NCBI GenBank assembly: GCA_021735165.1
Contig: JAIPHP010000003.1
Coordinates: forward strand, 1,419-65,418
Direction of reading: 5' to 3'
Source of the DNA: Candidatus Woesearchaeota archaeon
GTDB taxonomy: Archaea; Nanobdellota; Nanobdellia; Woesearchaeales; 21-14-0-10-32-9
DNA length: 64,000 nucleotides
Below are positions 3,077 to 36,912 of this stretch, piece after piece (position 1 is the first letter of the stretch; each line of letters opens with the position of its first letter). Under the pieces are notes generated by a model. That model was given only the letters and a program-made list of their open reading frames with translations. It did no database searches and was not told the origin of the DNA. The translations under genes and the position numbers were made by a program.

Positions 3077-3156
3077 TTAATCATTACAAAATGAAAACAA
3101 AACTTTTAATACTTGCCTAAGAAATTATTTATAAATACAAAAAAGGGGTTTAAAAC

Positions 3157-3936: not shown

Positions 3937-3938
3937 AT

Positions 3939-4151: not shown

Positions 4152-4152
4152 A

Positions 4153-4497: not shown

Positions 4498-4548
4498 TAC
4501 TTTCTAAAAAAAGATAAATTAATAAACATCTAAGCAAATTTTATGTAA

Positions 4549-20074: not shown

Positions 20075-20363
20075 TCTTTATGAAAGAAATAAAGAGGCAA
20101 GGCAAGCAAATCCCTGTATCAATCCAAACTGTGAAAATTTTGTTGATATTGGAAATCAATACAATATTTGTATTAGATGTTTTGAAATGTTAGTTGATTA
20201 TTATGGGTCAGAACATTTTATTTTTGATTATGTGACTAAACCTGCATTAAGAAGAATGCCTGTTGAACAATTAAAGAAAGTATTAGAGAAAGCAGAAAAA
20301 GAAAAACGAACTCTCAAAAATAAGAGATGGGGCATTTCTAACAGTCAAAAGAGGTGGGAATAG
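20022..20363 (+). CDS. small zinc-ribbon protein
   Basis: CxNPNC...CIRC motif; overlaps the MCM-like 3' end (probable start at the internal Met near 20046). Confidence 0.4.
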   Translation: MLIIRRNKMKEDHYEKLNLYERNKEARQANPCINPNCENFVDIGNQYNICIRCFEMLVDYYGSEHFIFDYVTKPALRRMPVEQLKKVLEKAEKEKRTLKNKRWGISNSQKRWE

Positions 20364-20767
20364 TGTCAAATAAGATAGATAATTTTAAAGGGAAAAGGCA
20401 CACTTTTTCGCCAGAAGAGAGGGCGAAAGGTGGAAGAAAAAGAACAGATAAGAAAATTTACAATTGTCAGACTAACGCAATCAAAAAAGGTAAAACTGAG
20501 AATGTTTTGAAAGATTGTAATTCTTGCAATATTCCTCTTTGTCCTTTTTTCAAAGAAGATGAGCAATGTAGTATGTTTAATACAAAGTTTGTAAGATTAG
20601 TTTCGTTTAAGAAAAACCTTTCTTCAATAAAAGATTTTGATGCATTTATGTTTAATTTTTTTCAAAGGGGTGCAAGGGCTCAAACATCGGATTCTTTTGA
20701 AGAAATGAAAATATTTCTTGATGACCTTTTAGAATATAGAGAGTGGAAATATGAATCGCTTAGATAA
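20354..20767 (+). CDS. small Cys-rich protein, paralog A
   Basis: Shares the N-terminal motif DNFKGKxHxF...ERxKGGxK with the next ORF; CNSCNIPLCPFF Cys cluster. Confidence 0.45.
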   Translation: MGIVSNKIDNFKGKRHTFSPEERAKGGRKRTDKKIYNCQTNAIKKGKTENVLKDCNSCNIPLCPFFKEDEQCSMFNTKFVRLVSFKKNLSSIKDFDAFMFNFFQRGARAQTSDSFEEMKIFLDDLLEYREWKYESLR

Positions 20768-21131
20768 TTTCAAAGGAAAGATTCACAAACTTACTAAAGA
20801 TGATTGTATTAGAGGAGGCAAGGTTTCCAGTGAACGTAAAAGAAAAGCAAATGGTATTAAAAATCTTCTTCATGGAAGAAATTCAGATAAACTATTTTTT
20901 CTTTTGAGTTGTATTGATTGTCCCGCTATTGGCAGATGTGAAAAAAGTCATGATGGATATTGTACTTATCTTCTAGAAGAGATGAAACTCAATAGGGATT
21001 TTTCTAAGCAGGTTGCCAGATGTCTTCATGTTGATAAAGAAGGACTTGATCCAACTACTTTTCTGATGAAGAAATATGAATTAAATAAAGAGTATATTGC
21101 TATGTTGTTTCCTAGCGACTCCAATGGATAG
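20751..21131 (+). CDS. small Cys-rich protein, paralog B
   Basis: N-terminal LDNFKGKIHKLT...RGGK motif paralogous to 20354-20767; CIDCPAIGRCEKSHDGYC cluster. Confidence 0.45.
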   Translation: MNRLDNFKGKIHKLTKDDCIRGGKVSSERKRKANGIKNLLHGRNSDKLFFLLSCIDCPAIGRCEKSHDGYCTYLLEEMKLNRDFSKQVARCLHVDKEGLDPTTFLMKKYELNKEYIAMLFPSDSNG

Positions 21132-21170
21132 TTTGCTTCTCGACGGTGTTTATATATGTCTTAGAGCATC

Positions 21171-21464
21171 ATGGATGACAATAATAACACGAGGTATAAT
21201 AATATGGCAAACAAAAAAACAAAGAAAGATTCTTTTTACCAAATGGCTAAGAAAGTACTCAATACAGAAAAGAAACCTATGCACTATGCAGACATTACAA
21301 GGGAGATCTTAAAGACAAAAGAAAGTAAAGGTAAGAGTCCTGAAAGAACTGTAATGGCTGTAATCATTAGAGATTCTCATGATGTGTTTATGAAAATGGG
21401 TGATGGTGTTTTTGGACTTACTAAATTAAAAGAACTTTATTCCGCTGAAAGTTCAAAGGTTTAA
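21171..21464 (+). CDS. HARE-HTH-like winged-helix DNA-binding protein
   Basis: Pattern YQMAKKVL...MHYADITREIL...SPERTVMAVIIRDSHDVFMKMGDGVFGL resembles the HARE-HTH domain. Confidence 0.4.
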   Translation: MDDNNNTRYNNMANKKTKKDSFYQMAKKVLNTEKKPMHYADITREILKTKESKGKSPERTVMAVIIRDSHDVFMKMGDGVFGLTKLKELYSAESSKV

Positions 21465-21707: not shown

Positions 21708-22307
21708 ATGACAAAGATACTCATTGCTACGCTCTATGTATTTGAACCTGTAATAGCTTCTGCAACGAAAATGAGTGCTGACAGACTCATTCTACTTATT
21801 GATAAGAAACCCGATAAGAAGCAAGTAGAATCGCTAGAAATACTAAAGAAATCACTTGGTTCAGTCATGGAAATAACTACTGTTGAGACTGAAGTGTATG
21901 ACATTGTTGAAGTAGCAAAAGAGACTGTTAAGATAATTGATCTTCTTTCTGATAAAGATGAAATCTATGTTGATATAACTGCTGGTCGTAAGACTAAAGC
22001 TTTAGGATTATTATTTGGTGCATATGCTCGAACTGACAGAGTAAAAAAGATAATGTATGTAAAAGAAGAGGATAAGTCCATTGTAAGTCTCCCTAAATTA
22101 TCTTATGCTATTACTCCAGGACAATATAAAATAGTTCATTATTTGCACAAGAATTCTATTGTTTCAATGATTGACCTTGCAAAGGAGATAGATATAAGCC
22201 GAGCCATGCTCTACAAACATATCAAAGAACTTAAGGATATGGATGTTATTGAGAACACTAAAGAAGGTCTCCAATTGACTGATTATGGGAGGATAGTGGT
22301 GCTTTAA
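21708..22307 (+). CDS. Csa3-like transcriptional regulator (CARF-like Rossmann domain plus C-terminal wHTH)
   Basis: N-terminal LIATLYVFEP...DITAGRKTKALGLL resembles the Csa3/CARF core (TxGF...DxTxGxR); C-terminal helix-turn-helix IVHYLHKNSIVSMIDLAKEIDISRAMLYKHIKEL. Confidence 0.5.
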   Translation: MTKILIATLYVFEPVIASATKMSADRLILLIDKKPDKKQVESLEILKKSLGSVMEITTVETEVYDIVEVAKETVKIIDLLSDKDEIYVDITAGRKTKALGLLFGAYARTDRVKKIMYVKEEDKSIVSLPKLSYAITPGQYKIVHYLHKNSIVSMIDLAKEIDISRAMLYKHIKELKDMDVIENTKEGLQLTDYGRIVVL

Positions 22308-22308
22308 A

Positions 22309-23157
22309 ATGGATAAAGAAAACAAGATTGTAGTATTCCAGGATAAAAAGATTAGAAGAACTTGGTTTAATGATGAATGGTGGTTTTCTATACTTGATAT
22401 TATAGGTGTTCTAACTAATCAATCTGATTATCAAAAGGTTCGTAATTACTGGAAATGGCTTAAAAATAAGCTAAAGGAAGAAGGAAGCGAGTTGGTTAGT
22501 GATACTAACCAACTGAAATTAGAAGCAGCAGATGGGAAAAAGTACAAAACTGATGTTGCTAATACTGAGCAAATATTTAGGTTGATCCAGTCAATCCCTT
22601 CTCCAAAAGCTGAACCTTTCAAACAGTGGCTTGCAAAAGTAGGTTATGAAAGAATTCAAGAAATAGAGAATCCTGAACTTGCTCAAGATAGAGCTAAAGA
22701 GTATTATGAACTTAAAGGATATCCTAAAGATTGGATTGACAAAAGACTTCGAGGGATTGCAGTTCGTCAAGCATTGACTGAAGAATGGAGCAACAGAGGA
22801 ATTGAAGAAAAAAGAGAATATGCCATCCTTACTAATGAAATATCTAAAGCAACTTTTGGTGTTGGAATTAAAGATCATAAGAAAGTCAAAGGTCTTGATC
22901 CAAAATTCAAGAATCAGAACCTTCGTGATCATATGACTGATCTTGAGCTTATCTTTAACATGCTTGGAGAAGCATCAACTACTGAGATTGCAAAGAAGAA
23001 AGATGCTCAAGGTTTTGTAGAAAATAAACTTGCAGCTAAAGAAGGTGGAAAGATAGCTGGAGATGCAAGAAAGAATCTTGAACTAAAGACAGGAGATAAA
23101 GTAGTTAGTGAAAAGAACTATCTTGATCTAAAGAAGAAGAGGAAAGAGTTGAAATGA
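22309..23157 (+). CDS. Bro-N / DinD-like (DNA-damage-inducible protein D family) protein
   Basis: N-terminal FQDKKIRRTWFNDEWWFSILDI...KKYKTDVANTEQIFRLIQSI matches the Bro-N/DinD pattern; shares the GKKYKT module with the downstream RhuM. Confidence 0.55.
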   Translation: MDKENKIVVFQDKKIRRTWFNDEWWFSILDIIGVLTNQSDYQKVRNYWKWLKNKLKEEGSELVSDTNQLKLEAADGKKYKTDVANTEQIFRLIQSIPSPKAEPFKQWLAKVGYERIQEIENPELAQDRAKEYYELKGYPKDWIDKRLRGIAVRQALTEEWSNRGIEEKREYAILTNEISKATFGVGIKDHKKVKGLDPKFKNQNLRDHMTDLELIFNMLGEASTTEIAKKKDAQGFVENKLAAKEGGKIAGDARKNLELKTGDKVVSEKNYLDLKKKRKELK

Positions 23158-24323
23158 CTTGCTATTCCCACTCTCGGATTTCAACTTTTGAACAATGTAA
23201 ATACAAGTACAAACTCCAATATATTGATAAGGTCAAAGTAGATGTTCCGACAACTGTTGAATGCTTTATGGGAGATCTTGTTCATCGTAGTTTGGAGAAG
23301 TTGTATAATGATCTGAAGTTTGAGAAACAGAACAGTAAAGAAGATCTAATCTCTTTTTTTAATGATCTTTGGTCTAAAGAGTGGACTGATGAAATCCTAA
23401 TTGTTAAGGAGGAGTTGAGTTCAGAGAATTATCGTTTGATGGGAGAGAAGTATATCTCTATGTATTATGATCATTATCAACCTTTTAATCAAATGACTGT
23501 TCTTGGTTTAGAGACTCAAGACAGAATGACTTTATCTGATGGAAACCAGTATCATGTAAGAATAGATAAGTTGGCTTGTGTGAGAGATACCTATTATGTC
23601 TGTGACTATAAAACTAATTCACGAATGAAAGATCAAGAAGAAGCAGACGAAGATAGACAACTTGCAATGTATTCAATCTGGGTAAAAGATAAATACAAAG
23701 ATGCAAAGAAAGTGGTTTTGCTTTGGCATATGCTTGCTTTTGATAAAGAAGCTATTTCTTCAAGGACTGACGAACAGTTGGAGAAATTACATTCCGAAGT
23801 TGTTTCTCAAATTAAAGATATTGAATCCTGTACTGAGTATCCTACTAATGTGACTGCACTATGCAATTATTGCGTGTATAAATCAATGTGTCCTTCTTTT
23901 AAGCATGAAGCAGAACTTGAGTTTAAATCTGCTGAAGAATTTACTGATGACTTCGGTGTGCAATTGGTTAATGATTATGCTGAAGCGGACTTTACTGAGA
24001 AAGAAGCTAAAAAGAAAAAAGAAGAATTGAAGATTAAGCTTATTGAGTTTGCAAAACAGAAAGAAGTTGATGTAGTCTATGGTTCTAATAAGAAAGCATC
24101 TGTTAAATCATATGACAAAGTTGTTTATCCAGAAGACAAAGCAGAGTTTATAAAACTCATAAAAGATAAAGGATTATATGATGAAATCAGCATGATTTCG
24201 TATCCTAGATTAAACTCACTTATCCTAAAAAAACAAGTTGATCAGGAAGTAATTGACAAGACTTCAACTGAAACTGATTATAGGATTTCACTATCTAAGA
24301 AGAGAACTGAGGGGGAAGAATAA
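23154..24323 (+). CDS. PD-(D/E)xK nuclease of the Cas4/RecB family with C-terminal Cys cluster
   Basis: N-terminal SHSRISTFEQCKYKYKLQYI (Cas4/AddB-like), DYKTN motif III, C-terminal CNYCVYKSMC Fe-S-type cysteines; 4-nt ATGA overlap with the upstream gene. Confidence 0.55.
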   Translation: MTCYSHSRISTFEQCKYKYKLQYIDKVKVDVPTTVECFMGDLVHRSLEKLYNDLKFEKQNSKEDLISFFNDLWSKEWTDEILIVKEELSSENYRLMGEKYISMYYDHYQPFNQMTVLGLETQDRMTLSDGNQYHVRIDKLACVRDTYYVCDYKTNSRMKDQEEADEDRQLAMYSIWVKDKYKDAKKVVLLWHMLAFDKEAISSRTDEQLEKLHSEVVSQIKDIESCTEYPTNVTALCNYCVYKSMCPSFKHEAELEFKSAEEFTDDFGVQLVNDYAEADFTEKEAKKKKEELKIKLIEFAKQKEVDVVYGSNKKASVKSYDKVVYPEDKAEFIKLIKDKGLYDEISMISYPRLNSLILKKQVDQEVIDKTSTETDYRISLSKKRTEGEE

Positions 24324-24332
24324 TAATGGCAC
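24286..24332. repeat. 47-bp direct repeat copy 1 (tttcactatctaagaagagaacNgagggggaagaataataatggca), flanks rhuM
   Basis: 46/47 identical to 25351-25397; contains the SD GAGGGGGAAG and the ATG of rhuM. Confidence 0.7.
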
Positions 24333-25348
24333 GGAATACAGATAATAATAAAATTGTCATCTATGAAACTGAAAAAGGGTTACCTAATATTGCAGTAAAG
24401 ATCGAAGATGAAACTGTATGGCTCACACAAGCCCAATTAGCTGATCTTTTTAGAACAACTAGACCTAATATAACAATGCATATTAGAAATCTTTTTGATG
24501 AAGGTGAATTGGATGAAAATTCAGTATGTAAGGATTTCTTACATACTGCTAATGATGGAAAAAAGTATAAAACTAAGCATTACAATCTTGATCTTATTAT
24601 TTCTTTAGGTTACAGAATTAAATCTAAAATTGCAACTAAATTTCGTCAATGGGCAACAGCAAGATTGCATGAATTCATAGTAAAAGGTTTTACTATGGAT
24701 GATGAGCGTCTAAAAAAGCTTGGTGGAGGTAATTATTGGAAAGAATTACTTGACCGTATCAAAGATATTCGTTCAAGTGAGAAAGTATTATATCGCCAAG
24801 TTCTTGACTTATATGCAACAAGCACAGATTATGATCCAAAATCAGCAGAATCAATTGATTTCTTTAAAGTTGTGCAAAATAAACTTCACTATGCAAGTCA
24901 TGGAAATACTGCTCCTGAGACAATCTATAATCGTGCAGATGCAGAAAAAGAATTTATGGGTTTGACTTCTTTTAAAGGAGACTTTCCTATCAAATCTGAT
25001 GTGGTTATTGCAAAGAACTACCTTTCAAAAAAAGAATTGAAAGTGCTTAATAATATAGTATCTGCATTCTTTGATCTGGCAGAAGTCAAAGCAATGAATC
25101 AAGAACCAATGCATATGAAAGATTGGATTATACAATTAGATCGTCTAATTCAGACATTTGACAAAGACGTCTTAACTGATGCAGGGAAGATCACTCATAA
25201 GAAAGCAGTGGAAAAAGCAGAAAAAGAATACAAAAAATACCAAGTAAAAACATTATCCCCAGTTGAAAAAGCATATCTAGAAAGCATAAAAGACGTTCAG
25301 AAGAAAGTCAAGAAAAGTGTAAATAAAGGAGCAAATAAAAATGAATGA
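24326..25348 (+). CDS. rhuM: RhuM-family protein
   Basis: N-terminus IVIYETEKG...IAVKIEDETVWLTQAQLADLF... is characteristic of RhuM, which is frequently embedded in type I R-M loci. Confidence 0.65.
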   Translation: MARNTDNNKIVIYETEKGLPNIAVKIEDETVWLTQAQLADLFRTTRPNITMHIRNLFDEGELDENSVCKDFLHTANDGKKYKTKHYNLDLIISLGYRIKSKIATKFRQWATARLHEFIVKGFTMDDERLKKLGGGNYWKELLDRIKDIRSSEKVLYRQVLDLYATSTDYDPKSAESIDFFKVVQNKLHYASHGNTAPETIYNRADAEKEFMGLTSFKGDFPIKSDVVIAKNYLSKKELKVLNNIVSAFFDLAEVKAMNQEPMHMKDWIIQLDRLIQTFDKDVLTDAGKITHKKAVEKAEKEYKKYQVKTLSPVEKAYLESIKDVQKKVKKSVNKGANKNE

Positions 25349-25350
25349 AG

Positions 25351-25397
25351 TTTCACTATCTAAGAAGAGAACAGAGGGGGAAGAATAATAATGGCAA
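25351..25397. repeat. 47-bp direct repeat copy 2, carries the SD and ATG of hsdM
   Basis: Matches 24286-24332 with one mismatch. Confidence 0.7.
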
Positions 25398-27100
25398 ATA
25401 TTACAGAATTAGCAAACTTCATATGGAGTGTAGCAGATCTCTTAAGAGGAGATTATAAACAATCAGATTACGGAAAAGTAGTCTTACCTTTCACGGTTTT
25501 AAGAAGACTTGATTGTGTTATAGAACCAACAAAAAAGAAAGTGCTTGATTATCTTCCAAAAATAAAAGGAATGAATATTAAAAATGCAGATCCAATTCTC
25601 AACAAAATTGCAGGATTAAATTTTCATAACAAAAGTAAGTTTGATTTTGAAAAACTAGTAGCAGATCCTGATAATATTGCTTCAAATCTAAGAAATTATA
25701 TCAACGGATTTTCTGAAGATGCAAGAAGTATAATGGAGTATTTTGACTTTGACAAAGAAATAGGTAAGCTCGATGATGCGAATTTGCTTTATATGATTGT
25801 TAAAAGATTCTCAGAAGTTGATTTACATCCTAACAAAATAAGTAATATTGAAATGGGGTATGCTTTCGAAGAACTTATCAGAAAATTCTCAGAGATATCT
25901 AATGAAACTGCTGGAGAGCACTTTACACCCAGAGAAGTAATTAGACTAATGGTAAATATTCTTTTCTTGAACGACAGAGATATTCTGACTAAGAAAGGAG
26001 TTACCAAAACCCTTTACGATCCTGCTTGTGGTACTGGAGGAATGCTTTCAGTTTCAGAAGAACATTTAAGAGAATTAAACCCAGATGCTCGTTTGGAAGT
26101 CTTTGGTCAAGAAATTAATCCTGAGTCTTATGCTATCTGTAAATCTGATATGGTTATTAAAGGTCAAAATACTGCAAATATAAAATATGGAAATACATTT
26201 ACGCATGATGGATTAGAGTTTAGCAAATTTGATTATATGCTTTCAAATCCTCCATTCGGAGTTGATTGGAAGAAATATGCTAAGCATGTAAAAGATGAAC
26301 ATGGAAACAGAGGTCATGCAGGAAGATTTGGTGCTGGGTTGCCTCGTATTTCTGATGGTTCATTGTTATTTTTACAACACATGATTTCAAAGATGAAACC
26401 GACTGGTTCTCGAATTGCTATTGTGTTTAATGGGTCTCCCCTATTTACTGGAAGTGCAGGTTCAGGAGAAACAGAAATAAGACGTTGGATTATTGAAAAT
26501 GATTGGCTTGAAGCAGTTATAGCTTTACCTGATCAACTATTCTATAACACAGGAATTAATACATATATTTGGATTATTTCAAATAAAAAATCTATTTATA
26601 GAAAGGGGAAAGTTCAATTAATTAATGCTACATCAGACAAATTTTATTCTAAGATGAAAAAGAGTCTTGGAAGTAAAAGACATGAAGTTGACAAAGTTTC
26701 AGAAATTACTTCCCTTTATGGTGATTTTAAGAATGGGAAATTCTGTAAACTTTTTGATAATGATGATCTTGGTTATTGGCAAGTTACTGTAGAAAGACCA
26801 TTAATGAAAGATGGAAAACCAGTTACTGATAAGAATGGCAATCCAAAACCTGACAGCTCATTAAGAGATACTGAAATAATACCATTGACGCAAGACATTA
26901 ATGAATATATTGAGAAAGAAGTAAAGCCTCATGTTCCTGATGCTTGGGTTGACGAATCAAAAACCAAGAAAGGGTATGAGATTAATTTTACTAAATATTT
27001 CTATGAATACAAACCTCTTCGAAGTTTGGCAGAAATCAAGAAAGATATTCTTGCTTTAGAAGAAGAAACAAAAGACATGATCGAGGAGGTTGTTGAATGA
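25391..27100 (+). CDS. hsdM: type I restriction-modification system methyltransferase subunit HsdM
   Basis: N6-adenine MTase motifs: DPACGTGGML (motif I) and LSNPPFG (motif IV); N-terminal HsdM_N-like region. Confidence 0.9.
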   Translation: MANITELANFIWSVADLLRGDYKQSDYGKVVLPFTVLRRLDCVIEPTKKKVLDYLPKIKGMNIKNADPILNKIAGLNFHNKSKFDFEKLVADPDNIASNLRNYINGFSEDARSIMEYFDFDKEIGKLDDANLLYMIVKRFSEVDLHPNKISNIEMGYAFEELIRKFSEISNETAGEHFTPREVIRLMVNILFLNDRDILTKKGVTKTLYDPACGTGGMLSVSEEHLRELNPDARLEVFGQEINPESYAICKSDMVIKGQNTANIKYGNTFTHDGLEFSKFDYMLSNPPFGVDWKKYAKHVKDEHGNRGHAGRFGAGLPRISDGSLLFLQHMISKMKPTGSRIAIVFNGSPLFTGSAGSGETEIRRWIIENDWLEAVIALPDQLFYNTGINTYIWIISNKKSIYRKGKVQLINATSDKFYSKMKKSLGSKRHEVDKVSEITSLYGDFKNGKFCKLFDNDDLGYWQVTVERPLMKDGKPVTDKNGNPKPDSSLRDTEIIPLTQDINEYIEKEVKPHVPDAWVDESKTKKGYEINFTKYFYEYKPLRSLAEIKKDILALEEETKDMIEEVVE

Positions 27101-28362
27101 ACACCTACTCTGAATACAAAGACAGTGGTATTGACTGGATTGGAAAAATTCCAAAGAGTTGGCAAGTTAAGAAATTAAAGTATATTGCAGACATTAAAAC
27201 AGGCGATAAAGATACAGTTGATCGTGAAGATGATGGAAAATATCCTTTTTTTGTTAGGTCACAGACTGTGGAGAAAATTAGTTCATATTCATTTGACGGT
27301 GAGGCAGTATTAACTGCAGGAGATGGGGTAGGCGTAGGTAAAGTATTTCATTATATTAATGGCAAATTTGATTATCATCAAAGAGTATATGGAATAAAAA
27401 ATTTCAAAGATGTAAATGGAAGATATTTTTATTATTTCCTTAAAGAAAATCTGCGTAAAGAAATTGCAAGAAATAACGCTAAATCAACTGTTGATTCTTT
27501 AAGATTGCCAATGTTTAAGGATTTCCATGTTACTTTTGGAAACATAGATGAGCAGAAAAAAATTGTTGATTTCTTAGATTCGAAATCAGAAAGAATTAAA
27601 GAATTTGTACATAAGAAAAAAGAACTTATAGAACTTCTTAAAGCACAGCGAATATCTCTTATCAATCAAGTTATTACTAAAGGTTTGAATAGAACTGTTG
27701 AATTAAAAGAGTCTAATATAACTTGGATTGGAAAATTTCCGAAGCATTGGATTATTAAGAAACTTAAATATAATACCTATATTAAAGGCAGAATAGGTTG
27801 GCAAGCATTAAAAACTGATGAGTTTGTTGATGAAGGTCCTTATTGTGTTACAGGAACCGACTTTAAAGAGGGGGAAATCAATTGGAATAGTTGTTATCAT
27901 GTTGGTGAAGAAAGATGGGCGATGGATAAATTCATCCAATTGAAAGAAAAAGATCTTGTAATTACTAAAGATGGAACAATTGGTAAAATTGCAATTGTAA
28001 AAAATTTAAATGGTAAAGCTTGTTTGAATAGTGGCGTTTTTGTTACAAGACCAAAGAATGAAGATTATATTACTGAGTATATGTATTGGGTTTTAAATTC
28101 AACTATATTTACTGAATTTATTAATTTTGAAAAGAAAGGCACTACTATTTCCCATTTATATCAAAATGTATTCGAGAATATGCCTTATACTCAACCTCCT
28201 ATCTCTGAACAGAAAGAGATTGTTAAATTTTTAGATCAAGAAACATCACAAATAGATAAATCCATAGAAAAGATTCAGAAAGAGATTGGGCTTTTAGAGG
28301 AGTACAAGGAAGCTCTTATTTCTGAGGCTGTGACTGGAAAAATAAAGGTGACGCATGAATAA
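27097..28362 (+). CDS. hsdS: type I R-M specificity subunit HsdS
   Basis: Two target-recognition domains each followed by conserved coiled-coil repeats (QKKIVDFLDSKSERIKEF... / QKEIVKFLDQETSQIDKSIEKIQKEI...); 4-nt overlap with hsdM. Confidence 0.85.
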   Translation: MNTYSEYKDSGIDWIGKIPKSWQVKKLKYIADIKTGDKDTVDREDDGKYPFFVRSQTVEKISSYSFDGEAVLTAGDGVGVGKVFHYINGKFDYHQRVYGIKNFKDVNGRYFYYFLKENLRKEIARNNAKSTVDSLRLPMFKDFHVTFGNIDEQKKIVDFLDSKSERIKEFVHKKKELIELLKAQRISLINQVITKGLNRTVELKESNITWIGKFPKHWIIKKLKYNTYIKGRIGWQALKTDEFVDEGPYCVTGTDFKEGEINWNSCYHVGEERWAMDKFIQLKEKDLVITKDGTIGKIAIVKNLNGKACLNSGVFVTRPKNEDYITEYMYWVLNSTIFTEFINFEKKGTTISHLYQNVFENMPYTQPPISEQKEIVKFLDQETSQIDKSIEKIQKEIGLLEEYKEALISEAVTGKIKVTHE

Positions 28363-28525
28363 AGAAGATAAAAATATACTTCTGGCGATAGGAGGCATGG
28401 CATTACTTGGATGGCTTTTAAGTAAAGACAAATATAAATGTCCTAGATGCAATTATCCCGTTACTAAAGAAATGTATTCTTGTCCTAATTGCGGTCAACC
28501 TTTGGCTTGGGAGGGTAAAAAATGA
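28355..28525 (+). CDS. 56-aa membrane-anchored zinc-ribbon protein
   Basis: MNKEDKNILLAIGGMALLGWLL (TM) followed by CPRC...CPNC; overlaps the hsdS stop (ATGAATAA) and the next start (ATGA). Below the ORF-track size cut-off. Confidence 0.4.
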   Translation: MNKEDKNILLAIGGMALLGWLLSKDKYKCPRCNYPVTKEMYSCPNCGQPLAWEGKK

Positions 28526-28845
28526 CTGATAAAGTTAAACCTCTGCCACCAGTAAAAGTAAAAATCAATCTTTGGAATTATTTAAAGTTAGGATTTTTAA
28601 TTTTAATATCTTGCATACTTTGGATTACATTAATTATTACAGGCATTAATTTGTTAGGGTATTATATTAAATCAATTATAGTTAATGGATTTTTTGATCC
28701 TGAAACCTTAAAATATGCCGTCATGCTTGTTGTTGGAGCTTATTTCTTTTTAATACTCGATAAAAATAAGATCTATGAAGCACTTAATGTAAAGAGGGGT
28801 TTGCCATTCATTACAGTTGAACAAATAGAGGAGAAAAAGAAATGA
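28522..28845 (+). CDS. small membrane protein (2 TM)
   Basis: 107 aa with two hydrophobic helices; translationally coupled (ATGA) on both sides. Confidence 0.45.
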   Translation: MTDKVKPLPPVKVKINLWNYLKLGFLILISCILWITLIITGINLLGYYIKSIIVNGFFDPETLKYAVMLVVGAYFFLILDKNKIYEALNVKRGLPFITVEQIEEKKK

Positions 28846-31181
28846 ATTTGATAATTAAAGTAATTACGGATTTAGGATATTTAATTTCTCCTGAAAATAG
28901 TCTTCTACTTTATTTCACAATATTGGGTATTTTAGTTACTTTAATTTCTATTTCAAGCAGTTTAACTAAAGAAGTACGTCAAGATTTATTTTATAATTAT
29001 TATATTAAATCAAAATTTCTGATTAGTTATCTAATATTTTATTTGATTTCATTTATTATTACATTTAGTTTTTATGTGTTTGAATGGGAATATTTGGATG
29101 TGTTATTAGGAACTCTTTTCATCATATTATTTGCTTGGTCGGTCTTTGTAATCTTTTTGTTTGTTAAAAATCTCAGTAGAAACTGGTTTTATGGACAACT
29201 TATTAGAAAGTTTAAATCAGAATTAAAAAAGACCAAACGGTCAGAAACCAAATATCAAACTCACACTCGAACAGAATTCAAATCATTAGATGATTTTCTA
29301 AAGAACCTAACTTATATTGAAACTACAAGTAGTGATTTTATCGAAGAAATAGAATTTGTAAAAGAGGTTGGTAGAATTACTCTAAAATCCAGTAATAATT
29401 ATATCTTTGATGATTTTTTTAGGCAACTTAAAAAAATAGAGAATCCTAAATTCTTTAGAAAATTAAGAAATTCTCTTTATGATTTAATGTGGGACAATTT
29501 CAATGAGCTAAGGGTTGTTATAAATCTTCAAAATATATATTCATCTTTATCAATTCATAGTTTTGAGAAAGTAAAAGAATTTGATAAAAATATTAATTCT
29601 GATGGTCTTAGAATTAAATCATTTAATGATATAAGATATATTGATTTATATGAAAAATCAACAGACCTAGATTGGATTAAGAGTTATGAAAGTCTAATTG
29701 TTAATACTATCAACAACTTATTTTCTTTAAGCAAGCAAACTATTTATTTGGATCTTGCTATAAAATCAAAGAAAAGATATCTTCTAGAACAATTGGGATC
29801 GATGGTTAAAGTTTTAGAGCATTATAATCACATACATGGACAAGATTTCCTAGATAATTATTATAATTTAAAATATAAAAAAGACATATCTGGAGATGAA
29901 AAGAAAAATTTGGATTTAGCAGATAGAAAATTGAATGCAATATCAGAACTAAAATCATTTCTTTGGAATAAACTGTCTGAATTATTCTATTTAATTTTAT
30001 ATGAAATTAATAGAAATGAACTTTCAAAAGATTTTTTTGAAGTGGCATTAAAGATATTTAATATTAAAAGTTTTAAAGACCAATTTTACTCTTATGAGAG
30101 ATTTGATAAATTAGATTTTTTAAATTACGACTGGTTTGAAGGCGGGGCTCAAGCTATTGCATCATTTAATTTTAACAAGTATAAATCATTGCTTTCATTC
30201 TATCAATATAAACTCGATGAGACTCTAGATTTAAATCAATATGGTGATGAACATTTCTCCAAACATAATGTTAATGATCTTAAAAATGCATTAAATGATT
30301 TGTCTGCAGAATATATAAATAAATATTTTGAATATGATTCTAAGCAGTTAAATGATTTTAAAAAGAAAGCCATTAAGGAAATTGACAATAAAATTAAAAT
30401 TTTAAAGAAGAATAAGAAAAAATATATTGCTGAAACTCCTTTAGTGAAAAAGTATGTGAATAATTTTATTTCAGACTGTAAATCTAATTGGGATAAAAAT
30501 CAAGAGATTCTCAAAAAGATCTTTAATTATGTTGAATTAGACAATGGTTATAAAGTTAAAAATTTCTTTGGTCAATACAAATTATTTGATAAAGATTGGT
30601 TTTTAGAATCTTTTGACAAAACTGTCGCTTTAGATAGAAGTTCAGGTCAGCACTTTGGAAGAGATCAAGTTATCAGTAAACGAAAAAATATATTAACAAA
30701 AATAAATGAAACTTTTAATGCCAAAATTGATAAAGAAATTATTGTAAAAGATCTATATTCTGATTTGAAGAAAATAATAAAGAAAAATAAAGAATACGTG
30801 TTGTTTTATAATTCTGATATTGGTAGAGAAATATATAGGATTCCTGATATTCAATGGGATAGACAAGAATGGCTTACAGCTTCGTTTAAAATTAATGATT
30901 CTAAAATTTTCTTGTATGCAACAAATATCGAGGAAAGTTTATTGTTTGAAAAGGAAAGCTTCACATTAGAGCAATATAAAGAAGGCTATGAGAAAATAAA
31001 ACAACCTTTAGTAGTGCAAGTTGAAGAAATAAAGAATAAGGATGAAATTAAAAAAATCAAAGAATCAAATGATAGATTCAAAAATACTCAAGATGTTCAG
31101 CAAAACGTAAAAATAAGAATTGCGGAAAAGTTCGAGATTAAACGTAATAAAGGTTCAAAATTTATTAGACTAAAAAGATAA
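28842..31181 (+). CDS. membrane-anchored large protein of unknown function embedded in the R-M operon (candidate abortive-infection/defense effector)
   Basis: 779 aa; about 4 N-terminal TM helices then a roughly 640-aa soluble domain with no recognizable motif; located between hsdS and hsdR. Confidence 0.5.
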   Translation: MNLIIKVITDLGYLISPENSLLLYFTILGILVTLISISSSLTKEVRQDLFYNYYIKSKFLISYLIFYLISFIITFSFYVFEWEYLDVLLGTLFIILFAWSVFVIFLFVKNLSRNWFYGQLIRKFKSELKKTKRSETKYQTHTRTEFKSLDDFLKNLTYIETTSSDFIEEIEFVKEVGRITLKSSNNYIFDDFFRQLKKIENPKFFRKLRNSLYDLMWDNFNELRVVINLQNIYSSLSIHSFEKVKEFDKNINSDGLRIKSFNDIRYIDLYEKSTDLDWIKSYESLIVNTINNLFSLSKQTIYLDLAIKSKKRYLLEQLGSMVKVLEHYNHIHGQDFLDNYYNLKYKKDISGDEKKNLDLADRKLNAISELKSFLWNKLSELFYLILYEINRNELSKDFFEVALKIFNIKSFKDQFYSYERFDKLDFLNYDWFEGGAQAIASFNFNKYKSLLSFYQYKLDETLDLNQYGDEHFSKHNVNDLKNALNDLSAEYINKYFEYDSKQLNDFKKKAIKEIDNKIKILKKNKKKYIAETPLVKKYVNNFISDCKSNWDKNQEILKKIFNYVELDNGYKVKNFFGQYKLFDKDWFLESFDKTVALDRSSGQHFGRDQVISKRKNILTKINETFNAKIDKEIIVKDLYSDLKKIIKKNKEYVLFYNSDIGREIYRIPDIQWDRQEWLTASFKINDSKIFLYATNIEESLLFEKESFTLEQYKEGYEKIKQPLVVQVEEIKNKDEIKKIKESNDRFKNTQDVQQNVKIRIAEKFEIKRNKGSKFIRLKR

Positions 31182-31200
31182 TATTTAAGGAGGCATCATA

Positions 31201-34200
31201 ATGGCAAAAACTAAAGAAAGTGATTTTGAGGAGGCAATCGTTGACTCTCTTGTAAACTCAGGAGGGTATGAAGAAGGAGATCCTAAGGATTTTGATTCAG
31301 AGACAGCAATATTCAAGAATGATTTATTCAATTTTTTACAAAAAACTCAACCTAATGAGTGGAAGAAATCTCTTGAGGTTCATGGTAATGATGTTGAAGA
31401 GAAAGTTCTATTTAGATTAACGCAAGAATTACAGTCTAGAGATATTTTAGATGTACTCCGAAATGGGTTTACCGATTATGGAGTAAAATACAAATTAGCT
31501 TTTTTTAAGCCTGAGACTAAATTAAATCTTGATGATGCTAAAAGATATAAGAATAATCTCTTAAAAGTTACACGACAAGTTCATCACTCTCCTAATAATC
31601 CTGATCTTTCCTTAGATTTAGTTTTATCTATTAATGGTATTCCTGTTGCTACAGCTGAACTTAAAAATCAGTTCACAGGTCAGAATGTATCTAATGCTGA
31701 AAGGCAATATATTGAAGATAGAGATCCTAATGAATTAATTTTTCAATTTAAGAGAAGAACCTTAGTTCATTTTGCTATTGATACTGATGAAGTGTTTATG
31801 ACAACTAAACTTGAAGGTAAGAGAACTAGATATTTGCCTTTTAATCAAGGAGATAATAATGGTGCAGGTAATCCCTTAAATCCTGATGGATACAAAACTG
31901 CTTATCTTTGGGAGTATGTTTGGTCTAAAGATAGTTGGATGGATATATTACAGAAATTTGTTCATTTACAAACTGAAACCTACAAGATAGAAGGTAAAAC
32001 TATAAAAAAAGAAAAGATGATTTTTCCTAGATACCATCAATTAGATTCTGTAAGAAAACTAACTCAAGATGTAAAGTCAAAAGGTGCAGGTATTAATTAT
32101 TTAATTCAACATTCTGCAGGAAGTGGTAAATCTAATTCTATTGCCTGGTTAGCTTATAGGTTAGCAAGTCTTCATAATAAAGAAGATAAGGCTGTATTCA
32201 ATAGTGTTATTGTTGTTACTGATAGAACTGTTCTTGATAAACAATTACAAGATACAATTTATCAGTTTGAACATAAACAAGGAGTTGTTCAAAAGATTGA
32301 TAAGAATTCAACTCAATTAGCTGAATCGCTTACAAAAGGTATTCCAATTATCATTACAACATTGCAAAAGTTTCCATTTGTTCTTGATAAAATTGGTAAA
32401 TTACCTAAGAGAAAATATGCTGTTATTGTAGATGAAGCTCATTCTTCTCAAGGTGGAGAATCTTCTAAAAAGATGAAAGAAGTTCTTTCTATAAAAGACT
32501 CTGAAAAAGCATTGAATACTTTAACTGAAGAAGCTGAAGATCTTGCAGAAGATGAAATCAGGAAATCTATGGAAGCGAGAGGAAAGCAAGATAATCTAAG
32601 TTTCTTTGCATTTACTGCCACTCCTAAAAATAAAACATTAGAAGTATTTGGTCATAAGAAAAATAAGAAACCATATCCTTTCCATCTTTACTCTATGCGA
32701 CAAGCAATTGAAGAGGGATTTATTATTGATATATTAAAGAATTTTACAACATACAAAACTTATTTCAAATTATCTAAAGAAATTGAAGATGATCCTAAGA
32801 TAAATAAAAAGAAAGCTGCACGAGCAATAGCAAGGTTCTTAACTTTACACCCTCATAATTTATCACAAAAAACCGAAGTTATGGTGGAACATTTTAGACA
32901 AGTTGTAATGCATAAAATTGGAGGTAAAGCAAAAGCAATGGTTGTAACAGCCTCTAGACTTCATGCAGTAAGATACTATCAAGAGTTCAATAAATATATC
33001 AAAGAAAAAGGATATAGCAATATTAAAACACTTGTCGCATTTTCAGGGATTGTTAAAGATGAATTCGGTAACGAGTTTAAAGAAACTATTATGAATGGTT
33101 TTAAAGAAAAAGAATTGCCTGATAAGTTTAATACTAGTGAATATCAAATTCTTTTAGTTGCAGAAAAATATCAGACTGGATTTGATCAACCATTACTCCA
33201 TACTATGTATGTTGATAAAAAATTATCTGGTGTGAAAGCTGTTCAAACATTATCTAGATTAAATAGAGTTTGTTCAGGAAAAGAAGATACTTTCATCCTC
33301 GATTTTGCAAATACAGAAGAGGAAATTATTGAATCATTCCAACCTTACTATGAAATTACAACTATTGATGAACCAACAAATCCTAATAGGTTATATGATC
33401 TTAAGACAAAACTAGATCAAACAAGAGTTTATACAAATTCAGAAATAGATAGTTTTGCTAAGTTCTTCTTTAAACCAAAAGAGCGATATACTGTAAGAGA
33501 TAATGCTCAATTAAATAGATTTATTGATCCTGCAGTTGATAGATATAAAGGAATTAGCGGTGAAGATGATAAAGAAGATTTCAAACACACACTTACTGTG
33601 TTTATTAGAACTTATGCCTTCTTGGCTCAGATAATGCCTTTTAATGATGCTGAACTTGAAAAACTATTTGCATACGGTAAACTTCTTTTGAACAAACTTC
33701 CAAAAAGACAACTAGGAGAACAATTCAAACTAAATGATGAAGTTGCCTTGGAATATTATAGACTACAAAAAATCAAAGAAAGTCATATTAAACTTGAAAA
33801 AGGAAAAGTTGGAGAGTTAAACTCTGCAAAAGAAGCAGGAATAAGAAAAGACAAAGAAGAGAAAGCCAAACTATCCGAATTAATCGAAGTATTAAACGAT
33901 AGGTTTGGAACTGACTTTACTGAAGCAGATAAATTGTTCTTTGATCAAATTGAAGCTGAGCTAGTTGAAGATCAAAAGCTAAAAAGTAGTGCCGAAGTAA
34001 ATAATATTGAAAACTTCAAGTTTGGATTTGATGACCAATTCATGAATAAGTTAATTGATAGGATGGAACAAAATGAAGACATCTTTAGAAAAATAAATGA
34101 TGATAAAGTATTTGCTTCTGTAGTTAAAGACTATATGCTAAAGAAAGTTTACAATAGACTAAAAGAAGAAGAGAAAACTCTTTCAAAGTATCTAACTCAA

Positions 34201-34266
34201 GACGGTTCTGCTATGGCTGTTGCTGATAAAAAAGAAAAGTACGGTAAGAAGAAGGTGAAGAAATAA
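31201..34266 (+). CDS. hsdR: type I restriction enzyme R subunit HsdR
   Basis: 1021 aa; SF2 helicase motifs including GSGKS-like QHSAGSGKSNS and DEAH box VIVDEAHSSQ; RBS AAGGAGG upstream. Confidence 0.9.
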   Translation: MAKTKESDFEEAIVDSLVNSGGYEEGDPKDFDSETAIFKNDLFNFLQKTQPNEWKKSLEVHGNDVEEKVLFRLTQELQSRDILDVLRNGFTDYGVKYKLAFFKPETKLNLDDAKRYKNNLLKVTRQVHHSPNNPDLSLDLVLSINGIPVATAELKNQFTGQNVSNAERQYIEDRDPNELIFQFKRRTLVHFAIDTDEVFMTTKLEGKRTRYLPFNQGDNNGAGNPLNPDGYKTAYLWEYVWSKDSWMDILQKFVHLQTETYKIEGKTIKKEKMIFPRYHQLDSVRKLTQDVKSKGAGINYLIQHSAGSGKSNSIAWLAYRLASLHNKEDKAVFNSVIVVTDRTVLDKQLQDTIYQFEHKQGVVQKIDKNSTQLAESLTKGIPIIITTLQKFPFVLDKIGKLPKRKYAVIVDEAHSSQGGESSKKMKEVLSIKDSEKALNTLTEEAEDLAEDEIRKSMEARGKQDNLSFFAFTATPKNKTLEVFGHKKNKKPYPFHLYSMRQAIEEGFIIDILKNFTTYKTYFKLSKEIEDDPKINKKKAARAIARFLTLHPHNLSQKTEVMVEHFRQVVMHKIGGKAKAMVVTASRLHAVRYYQEFNKYIKEKGYSNIKTLVAFSGIVKDEFGNEFKETIMNGFKEKELPDKFNTSEYQILLVAEKYQTGFDQPLLHTMYVDKKLSGVKAVQTLSRLNRVCSGKEDTFILDFANTEEEIIESFQPYYEITTIDEPTNPNRLYDLKTKLDQTRVYTNSEIDSFAKFFFKPKERYTVRDNAQLNRFIDPAVDRYKGISGEDDKEDFKHTLTVFIRTYAFLAQIMPFNDAELEKLFAYGKLLLNKLPKRQLGEQFKLNDEVALEYYRLQKIKESHIKLEKGKVGELNSAKEAGIRKDKEEKAKLSELIEVLNDRFGTDFTEADKLFFDQIEAELVEDQKLKSSAEVNNIENFKFGFDDQFMNKLIDRMEQNEDIFRKINDDKVFASVVKDYMLKKVYNRLKEEEKTLSKYLTQDGSAMAVADKKEKYGKKKVKK

Positions 34267-34267
34267 G

Positions 34268-34648
34268 ATGGCTTTTGCATTATCATTAAAACAACCATGG
34301 GCTGAATTGATTTTACAAGGTAAGAAAACAATTGAGACTAGGAGATGGAATACTGAGTTTCGAGGAGAGTTCTATATTCATGCTTCCAAAACCATTGATA
34401 AAGAAGCTTGTGAAGAGTTAGGGATTGATCCTTCTTCTTTGGTTACTGGTGTTATTGTTGGGAAGGCAACAATAGTTGATGTTAAGGAGTATTATTCTGA
34501 AGACCAATTTATGAAAGATAATTCTAAACACCGAGCAGGATTTTATGGGTTTGGACATCCTCTTTTTGGATTCATATTGGAAGATGTAGAGCGAATCGAA
34601 CCAATTCCTCAGAAAGGTGCTCTGAAGTTTTTTGAGGTGAATGTATAA
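34268..34648 (+). CDS. ASCH-domain (PUA-like) protein
   Basis: LSLKQPWAELILQGKKTIETRRW is the hallmark ASCH N-terminal motif; starts 2 nt after the hsdR stop. Confidence 0.65.
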   Translation: MAFALSLKQPWAELILQGKKTIETRRWNTEFRGEFYIHASKTIDKEACEELGIDPSSLVTGVIVGKATIVDVKEYYSEDQFMKDNSKHRAGFYGFGHPLFGFILEDVERIEPIPQKGALKFFEVNV

Positions 34649-36912
34649 TGGGATCACGTACTGGCTCTACATTTAAGTCATTGGCTGGACGAAAGAGAGG
34701 CAGTAAATTAAAGAGTATTGGTGCTTCTATCTCTGCAGGCATGCAAGCAGGAGAAACAGCTATTGTTTCATCTGGAGGTGCTGTTAGTGCAGGATCTGGA
34801 GCAATTGTTAGTGGAGGGGGTAGTGGTGCAGGAGTTGCTTTTGTAGCACCAATTGCAGGAGCAGCTGCTTTAGTTGCAAGTAGTAAGCCTTCTATGGATG
34901 TAGTGTATCATACTACCAAGTTAGCTGATTCTGTTTTAAAAAATCTGAATGACCTAACTAACAAATATCAAACTGCAAGTCAGAATCAGCCTGTTTATTC
35001 TTATTTTGCTAAAAGTCCAGTTGAGTTTCCAGTTAATATGGTTCAGAGCATGGTTGTTGATGAAGTTTCTGATCTTGCATGGGCTAATGTAAAGAGTGAA
35101 CTTGGATTAAAGACAACTGCACACCAGGATAGAATTGCGAAATTTATCATTTCACAATTAATTGGTCTTACATTGAACATGATTAAACAGAAAATAAAAG
35201 GAGAGAAAATAGACAAGCACTTTTTCTATAAAGAAGTTATGGGTGCAGCTATTGAATATTGCCTTGATGGGTTTATGCAATCAAATGCAGAAAATGAAGT
35301 CTTATCATCAAACCCTTCTGTTGCTTATTGCCAAATGGAGACTGGCTCACAAAAAGTTTTTCAAACAGCTACAAAAGAGATTGCCAAAGAACTGGCAGAA
35401 TTAATCTATGATGATATCTCTTCTCAAAACGAGTTTCCAGAACAAAAGCAATTCAATAGGATACTAAAGAAAAGAGTCACTGAAAAACTAAAGGTAGAAG
35501 TGGAAGCCACAGAATATGAAGGGGATTCTGATTTCAAAAAGCAACGTCTTCTCGCCTCTGATCAAAAAAAAGTCCCAGATAAATTAGATAAGAAAGATGT
35601 TGTGATCTCTACTCAAACCACTGTCAATAAAAGAAAGATTGATGATTCTTTGAGAATACGATTTACCGCACCAGAGAATGATTATGTAAGGGGAAGGATA
35701 ACTCCTGCACATAGGGATTTGCTTTCTATAACATCTACTATTTCAAAAATAGAGTATCTAATGAGAAGTGGTGATGTCACGAATATTTTACCTACTGACA
35801 CAATCATTTACTCCAACACAGACATTTCTAAGAAAACCAGAAGCCTTGTTAATACACTTGCTTCTTTTTTGCTAACCTTTAACCCAAATATATCTATAAA
35901 GAAAAATAGTGCCTCTTCGGAAAAAAAAGAACAAAAGGAAAATACAGAAAAATCTGATGTTATTGTTCTATTCTCTGGAGGATTAGATAGTTTAGCAGGA
36001 TTAGAATATGCAAAGAAAAAATACAAAAACCCTAAGTTTGTATATGTGAATAATCAAGTCAATAGAACAAGTGCTGTTGTAAGATATCTTCAACATAAAC
36101 TCCATTTAGGAGATGACCTTATTATTTTCCAAAGTCAGAAAGGAGGACAATTTCTACAACAGACAAGAGGATTTTTATTTCTCTCTGCCGCGGCTGTCAC
36201 CGCAGATGTGTTTGGAGCTAAAGAAATAATTGTTGCAGAATGCGGGGTAACAAAATATCAACCCAGTACAACCATTTCTGATGAGATTACAAAAACAACC
36301 CACCGATTAATGATTGAATTGGCAGAACATATTTTCTCTGAGTTCAATATAAATGTAAAAATCAAGTTCCCATTTGATATGAAAACTAAAGCTGAGATCA
36401 TAGCAGGATATCCAGACAAAAAGCTTCTTATTGATTCTCATTCGTGTAGATCATCAAGATTTTCAGATAAAGATAAGGATGAATGTGGATATTGTTTTGC
36501 TTGTCTACTAAAAAATATAAGTTTATCTTATGTGTTGGGCAAAAAACAAGACCAGTTTTTAATTGATCCAATTACAAATTCACAATCCTTTACAACTCAG
36601 AATTTAGGAAGAACCAGATCGTTAAAGAATAAGTGCTATGAATCAATTTTCTCACTTATTAATTTCTCCAAATCAATGCTTGCAGGCAATCTTCCAGAGC
36701 CAATACAAAAGTACATGCAGGACTATGGAACAACTAAATTATTCAAGAATCATGCAGAAGATATGATTTATGGGCTTATGTTCATGAAGAATAAAGGATG
36801 GGTAAAAAATGAGAAAGTTCTCGAATTGCTTAACAAAATTGAGAAGGAATCTTGGTTTGATAAAAAACAAATACTTGAACGAAGAAAAGAATTACTAAAT
36901 GTTAAGACTTAG
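34648..36912 (+). CDS. fusion protein: Gly/Ala/Ser-rich N-terminus, unknown middle domain, C-terminal QueC-like PP-loop ATPase
   Basis: C-terminal VIVLFSGGLDSLAG (SGGxDS PP-loop) and CGYCFACLLKN Cys cluster as in QueC; N-terminal 80 aa GSxGAxVSGGGSGAGVAFVAPIAGAAALVASS (Gly-zipper/hydrophobic); 1-nt overlap with the ASCH gene. Confidence 0.6.
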   Translation: MGSRTGSTFKSLAGRKRGSKLKSIGASISAGMQAGETAIVSSGGAVSAGSGAIVSGGGSGAGVAFVAPIAGAAALVASSKPSMDVVYHTTKLADSVLKNLNDLTNKYQTASQNQPVYSYFAKSPVEFPVNMVQSMVVDEVSDLAWANVKSELGLKTTAHQDRIAKFIISQLIGLTLNMIKQKIKGEKIDKHFFYKEVMGAAIEYCLDGFMQSNAENEVLSSNPSVAYCQMETGSQKVFQTATKEIAKELAELIYDDISSQNEFPEQKQFNRILKKRVTEKLKVEVEATEYEGDSDFKKQRLLASDQKKVPDKLDKKDVVISTQTTVNKRKIDDSLRIRFTAPENDYVRGRITPAHRDLLSITSTISKIEYLMRSGDVTNILPTDTIIYSNTDISKKTRSLVNTLASFLLTFNPNISIKKNSASSEKKEQKENTEKSDVIVLFSGGLDSLAGLEYAKKKYKNPKFVYVNNQVNRTSAVVRYLQHKLHLGDDLIIFQSQKGGQFLQQTRGFLFLSAAAVTADVFGAKEIIVAECGVTKYQPSTTISDEITKTTHRLMIELAEHIFSEFNINVKIKFPFDMKTKAEIIAGYPDKKLLIDSHSCRSSRFSDKDKDECGYCFACLLKNISLSYVLGKKQDQFLIDPITNSQSFTTQNLGRTRSLKNKCYESIFSLINFSKSMLAGNLPEPIQKYMQDYGTTKLFKNHAEDMIYGLMFMKNKGWVKNEKVLELLNKIEKESWFDKKQILERRKELLNVKT

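Follow-up and report, generated by a model that had tools for sequence, protein, structure and literature searches.

Two separately travelling gene cassettes, one encoding a membrane protein with a predicted HK97 fold, at the hsdS-hsdR junction of a woesearchaeal restriction operon

Genes at the hsdS-hsdR junction

This report concerns a stretch of 64,000 nucleotides (the window) from Candidatus Woesearchaeota archaeon, a member of a DPANN lineage (contig JAIPHP010000003.1), in which three open reading frames (ORFs) lie between hsdS and hsdR of a type I restriction-modification (R-M) operon. The DNA is AT-rich, with a GC content of about 31% across the window. We found that these ORFs make up two separate cassettes. 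Cassette 1 consists of two small genes, whose products of 56 and 107 residues are here termed p56 and p107; cassette 2 is a single gene for a 779-residue protein, here termed protein X. A sequence-only reading of this DNA had proposed three membrane-protein genes at this position, and all three ORFs are present between hsdS and hsdR exactly where it had placed them, with two ATGA junctions. The features are as follows.

25391..27100, + strand: hsdM, methyltransferase subunit, first gene of the host operon (PF02384, 3e-60; PF12161, 1.5e-27)
27097..28362, + strand: hsdS, specificity subunit (PF01420, 1.2e-32; two target-recognition-domain stretches)
28355..28525, + strand: cassette 1 gene A, the 56-aa peptide p56 (PF13240; orthologues; non-synonymous (pN) versus synonymous (pS) divergence)
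28522..28845, + strand: cassette 1 gene B, the 107-aa protein p107 (23 homologues; hydropathy; loop charges; pN/pS)
28842..31181, + strand: cassette 2, protein X, 779 aa; NCBI hypothetical protein K9L97_01205 of Candidatus Woesearchaeota archaeon (100% match to P0001)
28890..29168, + strand: X residues 17-109, three transmembrane (TM) helices (hydropathy, model helices, loop charges, alignment)
29178..30326, + strand: X residues 113-495, predicted all-helical cytoplasmic domain
30339..31178, + strand: X residues 500-779, conserved C-terminal module, predicted as two long helices and a complete HK97 (capsid/encapsulin) fold
30525-31178, + strand: predicted HK97 fold core, X residues ~562-779
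31187..31193, + strand: AAGGAGG, Shine-Dalgarno-like motif 7 nt upstream of the hsdR start (read from the sequence)
31201..34266, + strand: hsdR, restriction/translocase subunit (PF04313, PF18766, PF22679, PF04851; HSDR_N/ResIII/SWI2_SNF2)

The three ORFs are translationally coupled. The end of hsdS and the start of the p56 gene share 8 nt (ATGAATAA), an ATGA overlap joins the genes at both the 56/107 and the 107/779 junctions, and a purine-rich Shine-Dalgarno-like motif precedes each ORF. The spacer between the X gene and hsdR measures 19 nt and includes the AAGGAGG motif before the hsdR ATG.

All three ORFs are genuine genes under purifying selection. In comparisons with homologues, pN was 0.18-0.24 and pS 0.57-0.83 for p56, 0.17-0.37 and 0.67-0.81 for p107, and 0.25-0.39 and 0.69-0.84 for X, with synonymous divergence near saturation in every case. 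Because non-synonymous divergence lies so far below synonymous divergence, we regard the ORFs as functional genes. Further, a 779-codon ORF at 31% GC cannot be explained by chance. The sequence-only reading had named pseudogenes as one outcome that would undo it; the intact ORFs and the low pN speak otherwise.

Topology and predicted fold of protein X

Hydropathy peaks in X fall at residues 20-38, 59-77 and 87-105, and the structural model places TM helices at 17-41, 58-79 and 85-109. Both methods thus give three helices, not the four or so that had been proposed. By the positive-inside rule, the loop charges indicate an external N-terminus and a cytoplasmic location for all that follows TM3; the C-terminal module should therefore be cytoplasmic. 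The alignment reveals a conserved motif, S-L-T-K-E-V-R-Q-D-L, in the cytoplasmic loop that follows TM1.

A full-length AlphaFold (AF2) model, built from an alignment of 21 sequences, has a mean predicted local distance difference test (pLDDT) score of 85.3. Past TM3 it is all-helical to about residue 495, continues through two long helices (500-531 and 536-560), and ends in an alpha/beta domain that extends to the C-terminus. Residues 113-495 have structural matches to generic helical repeats only. A model of the C-terminal domain by itself reaches a pLDDT of 92.5, and a Foldseek search of BFVD returned 94 hits at E<=1e-3; all those in the top 50 that bear a functional name are capsid or head proteins. 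The modelled domain has the topological hallmarks of HK97: an E-loop hairpin, a spine helix, a P-domain sheet, and an A-domain sheet with two helices. In structure it matches family 1 encapsulins best, among them the fusion encapsulin of the archaeon P. furiosus. The assignment of the C-terminal module of X as a whole HK97 fold is robust for a prediction.

X belongs to no sequence family in Pfam, NCBIfam, PHROG or PADLOC. A profile of the X family had no match in the Protein Data Bank (PDB) sequences at E<=10; none of 37 family members has an accepted Pfam match, and PF04454, the encapsulin family, was not matched at E<=1. Two Pfam-level candidates were rejected. A match to Tctex-1 (17.6 bits) was under its cut-off, and DUF2254 (PF10011) was matched by three of the 37 members, with a best score of 19.1 bits (P0089) and 11.4 bits for the window protein, against a gathering cut-off of 28.8. 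The earlier statement that none of the three proteins resembles anything that can be named is hence correct for X at the level of sequence, but it fails at the level of structure, where the C-terminal third is predicted to adopt the capsid/encapsulin fold. Nor does X resemble the anticodon nuclease PrrC, which had been cited as an example of cargo at this position; X has neither a Walker A motif nor a nuclease signature.

The N-terminal half of X is modular, and the HK97 module is constant. In profile searches, P0067 (755 aa), P0071 and P0081 align with X only from position ~500 onwards, and they carry instead a TM-free N-terminal domain of about 440-460 aa. P0067 and P0071 occupy the same slot as X, immediately upstream of hsdR. 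In P0089 (1254 aa), a transglutaminase-like core (PF01841, 1.6e-9) is set ahead of the TM region. This layout, a constant C-terminal module joined to interchangeable N-terminal ones, would be typical of sensor-effector immune proteins.

Three side observations concern these relatives. The alternative N-terminal domain (P0067 residues 1-457, P0081, P0121) has no match in Pfam or the PDB and only three homologues; it also occurs as a stand-alone protein (P0121, 431 aa), and the variant architecture is found in L020 at 1600-3867. A pattern, G-T-x-D-F...E-x-[TR], is conserved in this domain; its faint likeness to PD-(D/E)XK nucleases is unconfirmed, and we make no claim of it. Finally, P0102 (865 aa), a distant relative of X, has a Cys-rich tail (…YHKSNCRCL…GYTPCSKCNPP) that resembles a small zinc-binding domain.

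The p56-p107 pair

p56 matches PF13240 at 25.7 bits (cut-off 25), and its C4 zinc ribbon, CPRC...CPNC, is invariant across six loci. The zinc ribbon proposed earlier for this peptide is thereby corroborated. Its TM segment is probable: because the N-terminal hydrophobic stretch (ILLAIGGMALLGWLL) is short, about 15 residues, and lies below the hydropathy threshold, we do not call it certain. The ribbon probably faces the cytoplasm. For p107, the two TM segments that had been predicted are evident in the hydropathy profile, which describes a two-TM hairpin; by the positive-inside rule, its loop charges indicate an N-in/C-in orientation. p107, for which 23 homologues were found, has a conserved C-terminal motif, LDKNKIYEALNVKRDLPFIT, and no family in Pfam, NCBIfam, PHROGs or PADLOC.

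A zinc-ribbon ORF of 55-61 aa lies directly 5' of the p107 homologue in every locus whose upstream sequence is present; in L027/28, this ORF begins at a non-ATG start. In the window, L009/10, L024/25, L026, L027/28, L029 and L030, the pair directly follows hsdS, precedes hsdR, or does both, such that seven of nine distinct pair loci are inside R-M operons. The exceptions are L011, in which the pair is solo and one copy adjoins a ribosomal protein gene, and L012/13, in which it is beside an hsdM-hsdS-GmrSD cluster and also next to a QueC-like gene. The HsdR proteins of the pair loci are 23% to 73% identical to one another, and their p107 homologues share 43-72% identity with that of the window. 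Translational coupling of the pair to hsdS is seen in the window, L010 and L025, and would suggest co-expression with the R-M complex. The pair probably forms a small membrane module that is expressed together with HsdS, and it may act as a small membrane effector or anchor.

Recurrence and exchange among R-M operons

Twelve distinct loci of the X family are informative, L016 being left out as too short to judge; in 10 of the 12, the X-family gene is part of a type I R-M operon and stands between hsdS and hsdR. The ten are the window, L001/2, L003-5, L006 (Patescibacteria), L014 (another Woesearchaeota), L017, L018, L019, and the two with the variant architecture, L020 and L021/22. Overall, the hosts of the family are DPANN archaea, candidate phyla radiation (CPR) bacteria and other bacteria. 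The idea that the window genes are true cargo, nested among R-M subunit genes and recurring in hsd operons elsewhere, is thus upheld for both cassettes. Their treatment as a trio is not: the three occur together only in the window, the pair and the X gene travel separately, and the two small genes upstream of X are absent from every X locus fetched other than the window. A single system of three genes is accordingly ruled out, no other locus carrying both cassettes.

The bacterial locus L017 has the gene order R-X-S-M. Its operon reads hsdR, a 367-aa gene, X, hsdS, a 116-aa gene, Bro-N and hsdM, and the X homologue (2309-4590) is present as ORFs of 133 and 627 aa, either through a frameshift or as a genuine two-gene form.

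HsdR of the window is 23-27% identical to those of all other X-containing operons; the corresponding figures are ~31% for HsdR of L003 and 56% for that of L006. X is therefore embedded in at least four HsdR lineages, which are 23-56% identical. The HsdR proteins of L001, L018, L019, L020 and L021, on the other hand, are mutually 92-98% identical, and the X proteins of this group reach just 50-71% identity. Between the window and L001 or L019, the identity of X is 57%. Within the 92-98% group, the rate of synonymous substitution (dS) is 0.50-0.66 for X versus 0.12-0.29 for hsdR, and the ratio of non-synonymous to synonymous rates (dN/dS) is ~0.33 versus 0.13-0.19. Because the identities and dS values of X and HsdR disagree in this way, it follows that X entered unrelated operons at one and the same junction and is also swapped within near-identical ones. 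These sequence comparisons point to cassette exchange and faster evolution of X.

The hsdS-hsdR junction is a recurrent cargo hotspot in these archaea and bacteria. Elsewhere, the same junction holds PIN toxins, RNase H, nucleotidyltransferase pairs, OLD-type ATPases and a protein of 406-436 aa. In different assemblies of the group with 92-98% identical HsdR, varied cargo is present at both the hsdM-hsdS and the hsdS-hsdR junctions: an AAA_15/OLD-type ATPase, PIN_12, RNase H together with a PIN pair, unknown proteins of 389 and 406 aa, and X variants. This group offers a natural series for the study of cassette exchange. The 406-436-aa protein (L018 6669-7898, L021 6040-7260, L001 13421-14731; 34-53% identical, no Pfam family) is near X in three loci, before it in two and after it in one. 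Because L019, L020 and the window lack it, it was rejected as a partner of X; it counts as a third cassette, independent of the other two.

Both cassettes hold a strict position, directly following hsdS, directly preceding hsdR, or both, and their stop and start codons often overlap with those of their neighbors. This raises the question of whether the cassette products are accessory subunits of the type I enzyme, that is, membrane proteins that tether or position HsdM/S/R where foreign DNA enters, or that regulate restriction. Membrane association has been reported for type I enzymes of E. coli, and the coupling of the pair to hsdS in three loci is in keeping with the idea. However, no R-M genes accompany X in L007 and L008/L015, or the pair in L011. 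Since two X loci lie outside R-M operons, X does not need R-M. Further, both cassettes cross between operons that are 23-31% identical in HsdR with no co-divergence, which is the behavior of autonomous cargo; X variants that have no anchor keep the same slot, and closely related R-M operons carry other cargo there. We therefore consider a role as R-M accessory subunits unlikely, and prefer to view the cassettes as autonomous antiviral cargo.

Rarity and negative searches of viral collections

The X family is very rare. A word-indexed search yielded 21 homologues, an exhaustive profile search yielded 80 clusters among 1.84 billion representative proteins, and only four loci were found in 185,579 species genomes. 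These numbers bear on whether the genes could be housekeeping ones, for a transporter or for membrane biogenesis, that lie in the operon by accident, an outcome that the sequence-only reading had itself named as fatal to its proposal. All three products are membrane proteins, and one copy of the pair in L011 is beside a ribosomal protein gene. Against this, the distribution of X is patchy over archaea and bacteria, no transporter family is matched, and most loci (10/12 for X and 7/9 for the pair) are inside R-M operons. Rarity and context effectively refute the housekeeping explanation.

A further alternative to an antiviral role is that the cassettes are selfish cargo of mobile elements: what remains of an integrated element or a virus, or else genes for addiction or superinfection exclusion that benefit the element and not the cell. 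Tailed viruses are characterized by the HK97 fold, an integrase and a D5-type primase share an island with L003-5, and the island around the window operon includes two types of gene typical of mobile elements, Bro-N and RhuM. Nonetheless, pattern scans of IMG/VR with full-length and C-terminal alignments recovered no relatives of X, tblastn against 50,697 GenBank phage records gave no match to X at E<=1, and the small pair was likewise not found in IMG/VR or the GenBank phages. No portal, terminase, protease or other virion gene adjoins X in the loci shown, no recombinase is associated with the cassettes, and the intact ORFs have long been under purifying selection. Selfish cargo thus strikes us as an improbable account, and we retain the reading of the cassettes as additions to host defense.

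Comparison with known systems

The closest structures to the C-terminal module of X are family 1 encapsulins (PfV 2e0z, B. linens linocin M18 7bcv, T. maritima 7k5w). X has no sequence similarity to them, however, and it differs in its 500-residue N-terminal half with three TM helices, in the lack of a cargo gene nearby, and in its embedding in R-M operons. Judged as an encapsulin, it lacks both sequence membership (PF04454) and a co-encoded or fused cargo. Family 4 encapsulins retain an A-domain fragment only (PMC8346489), whereas X is predicted to have the whole fold. It is nevertheless worth asking whether X forms an encapsulin-like shell or membrane lattice with a non-immune purpose, as a compartment or scaffold, and has hitch-hiked with R-M genes. 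Besides the structural matches, this idea draws on reports that N-terminal fusions to encapsulin shells exist and that some family 3 encapsulins have predicted TM helices (PMC8346489). Yet neither PF04454 nor any other Pfam family is matched at E<=1, and no conserved enzyme or cargo partner accompanies X in the loci examined, its neighbors being hsd genes or varied defense-type cargo. The membrane-anchored N-terminal half fits poorly inside a closed shell, such that closed-shell assembly by X is sterically doubtful on the model. Finally, X is very rare, turns over rapidly, and has been inserted into R-M operons repeatedly and independently. A non-immune lattice is, in our estimation, unlikely.

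With the HK97-type major capsid proteins of tailed phages, archaeal tailed viruses and herpesviruses, X shares a predicted fold but not virion-module neighbors or viral genomes; it is membrane-anchored, chromosomal, in an R-M context, and conserved as a single gene. A satellite-encoded capsid homolog of HK97 fold, Ccm of SaPIbov5, is described in its PDB entry as a size-redirecting protein in the SaPIbov5 procapsid. Ccm is soluble, comes from a satellite with its own packaging strategy, and has recognizable capsid sequence homology. None of these attributes applies to X, for which co-assembly is hypothetical.

By position, X and the pair belong to the class of R-M-embedded cargo, as both recur in unrelated operons. 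Genes nested in type I R-M operons are enriched for defense functions, a principle known as “guilt-by-embedding” (Payne et al., 10.1101/2024.01.29.577857; TgvAB, PMC11411939). PrrC, TgvAB (V. cholerae VPI-2) and the PADLOC “PDC” candidates are nested among hsd genes, mobile between operons and more rarely solo, and the same logic applies here (10.1101/2024.01.29.577857; PMC11411939). There is no homology to these proteins, however, and X is without ABC-ATPase, anticodon-nuclease or GmrSD domains. PADLOC-DB v2 contains no match for p107 or X, and p56 has only chance-level zinc-ribbon matches there (E>=0.01).

PifA is a membrane-associated protein that aborts infection. Along with Lit, CapRel, some CBASS/Pycsar systems and SEFIR, it exemplifies the major capsid protein as a frequent trigger of bacterial immunity (PMC10884400). 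The presumed target of X, a viral capsid protein, is the same, but we found no relation to these systems in sequence or structure, and none of them is reported to have a capsid-fold domain of its own. A conceptual parallel exists in Fv1, a mouse restriction factor that derives from a retroviral gag gene and targets the capsids of incoming viruses. The likeness is an analogy only: Fv1 is eukaryotic, has another fold, acts on incoming rather than assembling capsids, and is evolutionarily unrelated. In the literature, we found no prior description of a capsid-fold domain in a defense-associated or membrane-anchored protein, nor of R-M cargo in DPANN archaea. The nearest published case is that of the family 3 encapsulins with predicted TM helices.

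Proposed function

The explanation that we favor, and to which we assign about an even chance, is that two independent cassettes occupy the hsdS-hsdR junction and that both are antiviral add-ons that back up restriction. The antiviral, or phage-exclusion, function of both is what we infer from their genomic context. For X, a more specific and tentative proposal can be made, which we hold to be less likely than not. Its HK97 module would be the constant recognition or oligomerization part, a mimic of the major capsid protein of tailed viruses that would interact with the capsomers or procapsids of viruses on the cytoplasmic side of the membrane. In HK97, the N-terminal extension known as the delta domain points to the shell interior. 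The N-terminal extensions of fusion encapsulins also face the interior (PMC8346489). Because of this orientation, the bulky N-terminal half of a co-assembled X, anchored in the membrane, would hold or cap the shell as it grows, and assembly would be poisoned. Alternatively, clustering of the TM segments of X could damage the membrane and thus abort the infection. In the sister proteins, the soluble domain that replaces the membrane half would serve as a different effector. X might then be the founding member of a new prokaryotic immune class, built from a domesticated capsid protein with an interchangeable N-terminal effector; its HK97 module would co-assemble with the capsid proteins of infecting tailed viruses, or be recognized by them, and so deliver the effector into or onto the forming capsid, although we hold this, too, to be somewhat doubtful.

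Several considerations weigh against these proposals. The fold of X rests on AlphaFold models from shallow alignments (21 and 14 sequences), and no link between X and capsid or encapsulin families was found at the sequence level. The model matches encapsulins better than viral capsid proteins, and a role in forming shells or lattices would fit this equally well. The window X contains no nuclease, NTPase or protease motif that would identify an effector activity. Half of the ten embedded X loci come from one closely related R-M lineage, so the number of independent insertions is about five to six, not ten, and L007 and L008/L015 have X outside any R-M operon. For cassette 1, position is the only functional clue. 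Moreover, the host organisms are uncultivated.

Restriction operons have already proved a source of new antiviral systems in the genes nested within them, and this locus adds two unannotated, recurrent cargo families, one of which combines a membrane anchor with a predicted capsid/encapsulin fold, an architecture that we have not found described. DPANN archaea and CPR bacteria are reported to have few recognized defenses (PMC12988326). If X acts on capsid assembly, it would embody a new immune principle, in which a host capsid mimic is used against viruses, and a new non-viral branch in the history of the HK97 fold, with a bearing on the frequency and the purposes of capsid-protein domestication by cells. 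It would be the third cellular use of this fold, after encapsulins and gene transfer agents, and a prokaryotic counterpart of the gag-derived restriction factors, acting late as a partner of restriction in DPANN archaea and CPR bacteria. Whatever the mechanism, the hotspot junction, the exchange of cargo between near-identical operons and the swappable effector half yield testable hypotheses.

The surrounding island

A larger defense island appears to have the R-M operon at its core. Thirteen co-directional genes with overlapping or very short junctions span about 15 kb (21708-36912, + strand). Those that flank the operon, and the gene that closes the array, are listed here.

21708-22307, + strand: CARF/Csa3-like regulator
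22309-23157, + strand: Bro-N/PDC-S13
23154-24323, + strand: Cas4-like PD-(D/E)XK protein
24326-25348, + strand: RhuM/PDC-S05
34268-34648, + strand: ASCH protein
34648-36912, + strand: QatC-like protein, 754 aa
36902-37570, - strand: RadC, convergent, closing the array

No tRNA genes that could mark the borders of the island are present in the window. Downstream of hsdR, the operon runs on into the ASCH and QatC-like genes, and the latter is translationally coupled to hsdR via the former. The QatC-like protein has a Gly/Ala/Ser-rich N-terminus, about 400 unfamiliar residues, and a C-terminal QueC/QatC-like domain. It matches NF041925 at 4e-25, far under the 280-bit cut-off, and no QatA, QatB or QatD partners accompany it. 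Directly upstream of the array (18011-21464) are four consecutive ORFs without Pfam matches (687, 113, 137 and 126 aa), followed by a gene for a HARE-HTH protein (21171-21464).

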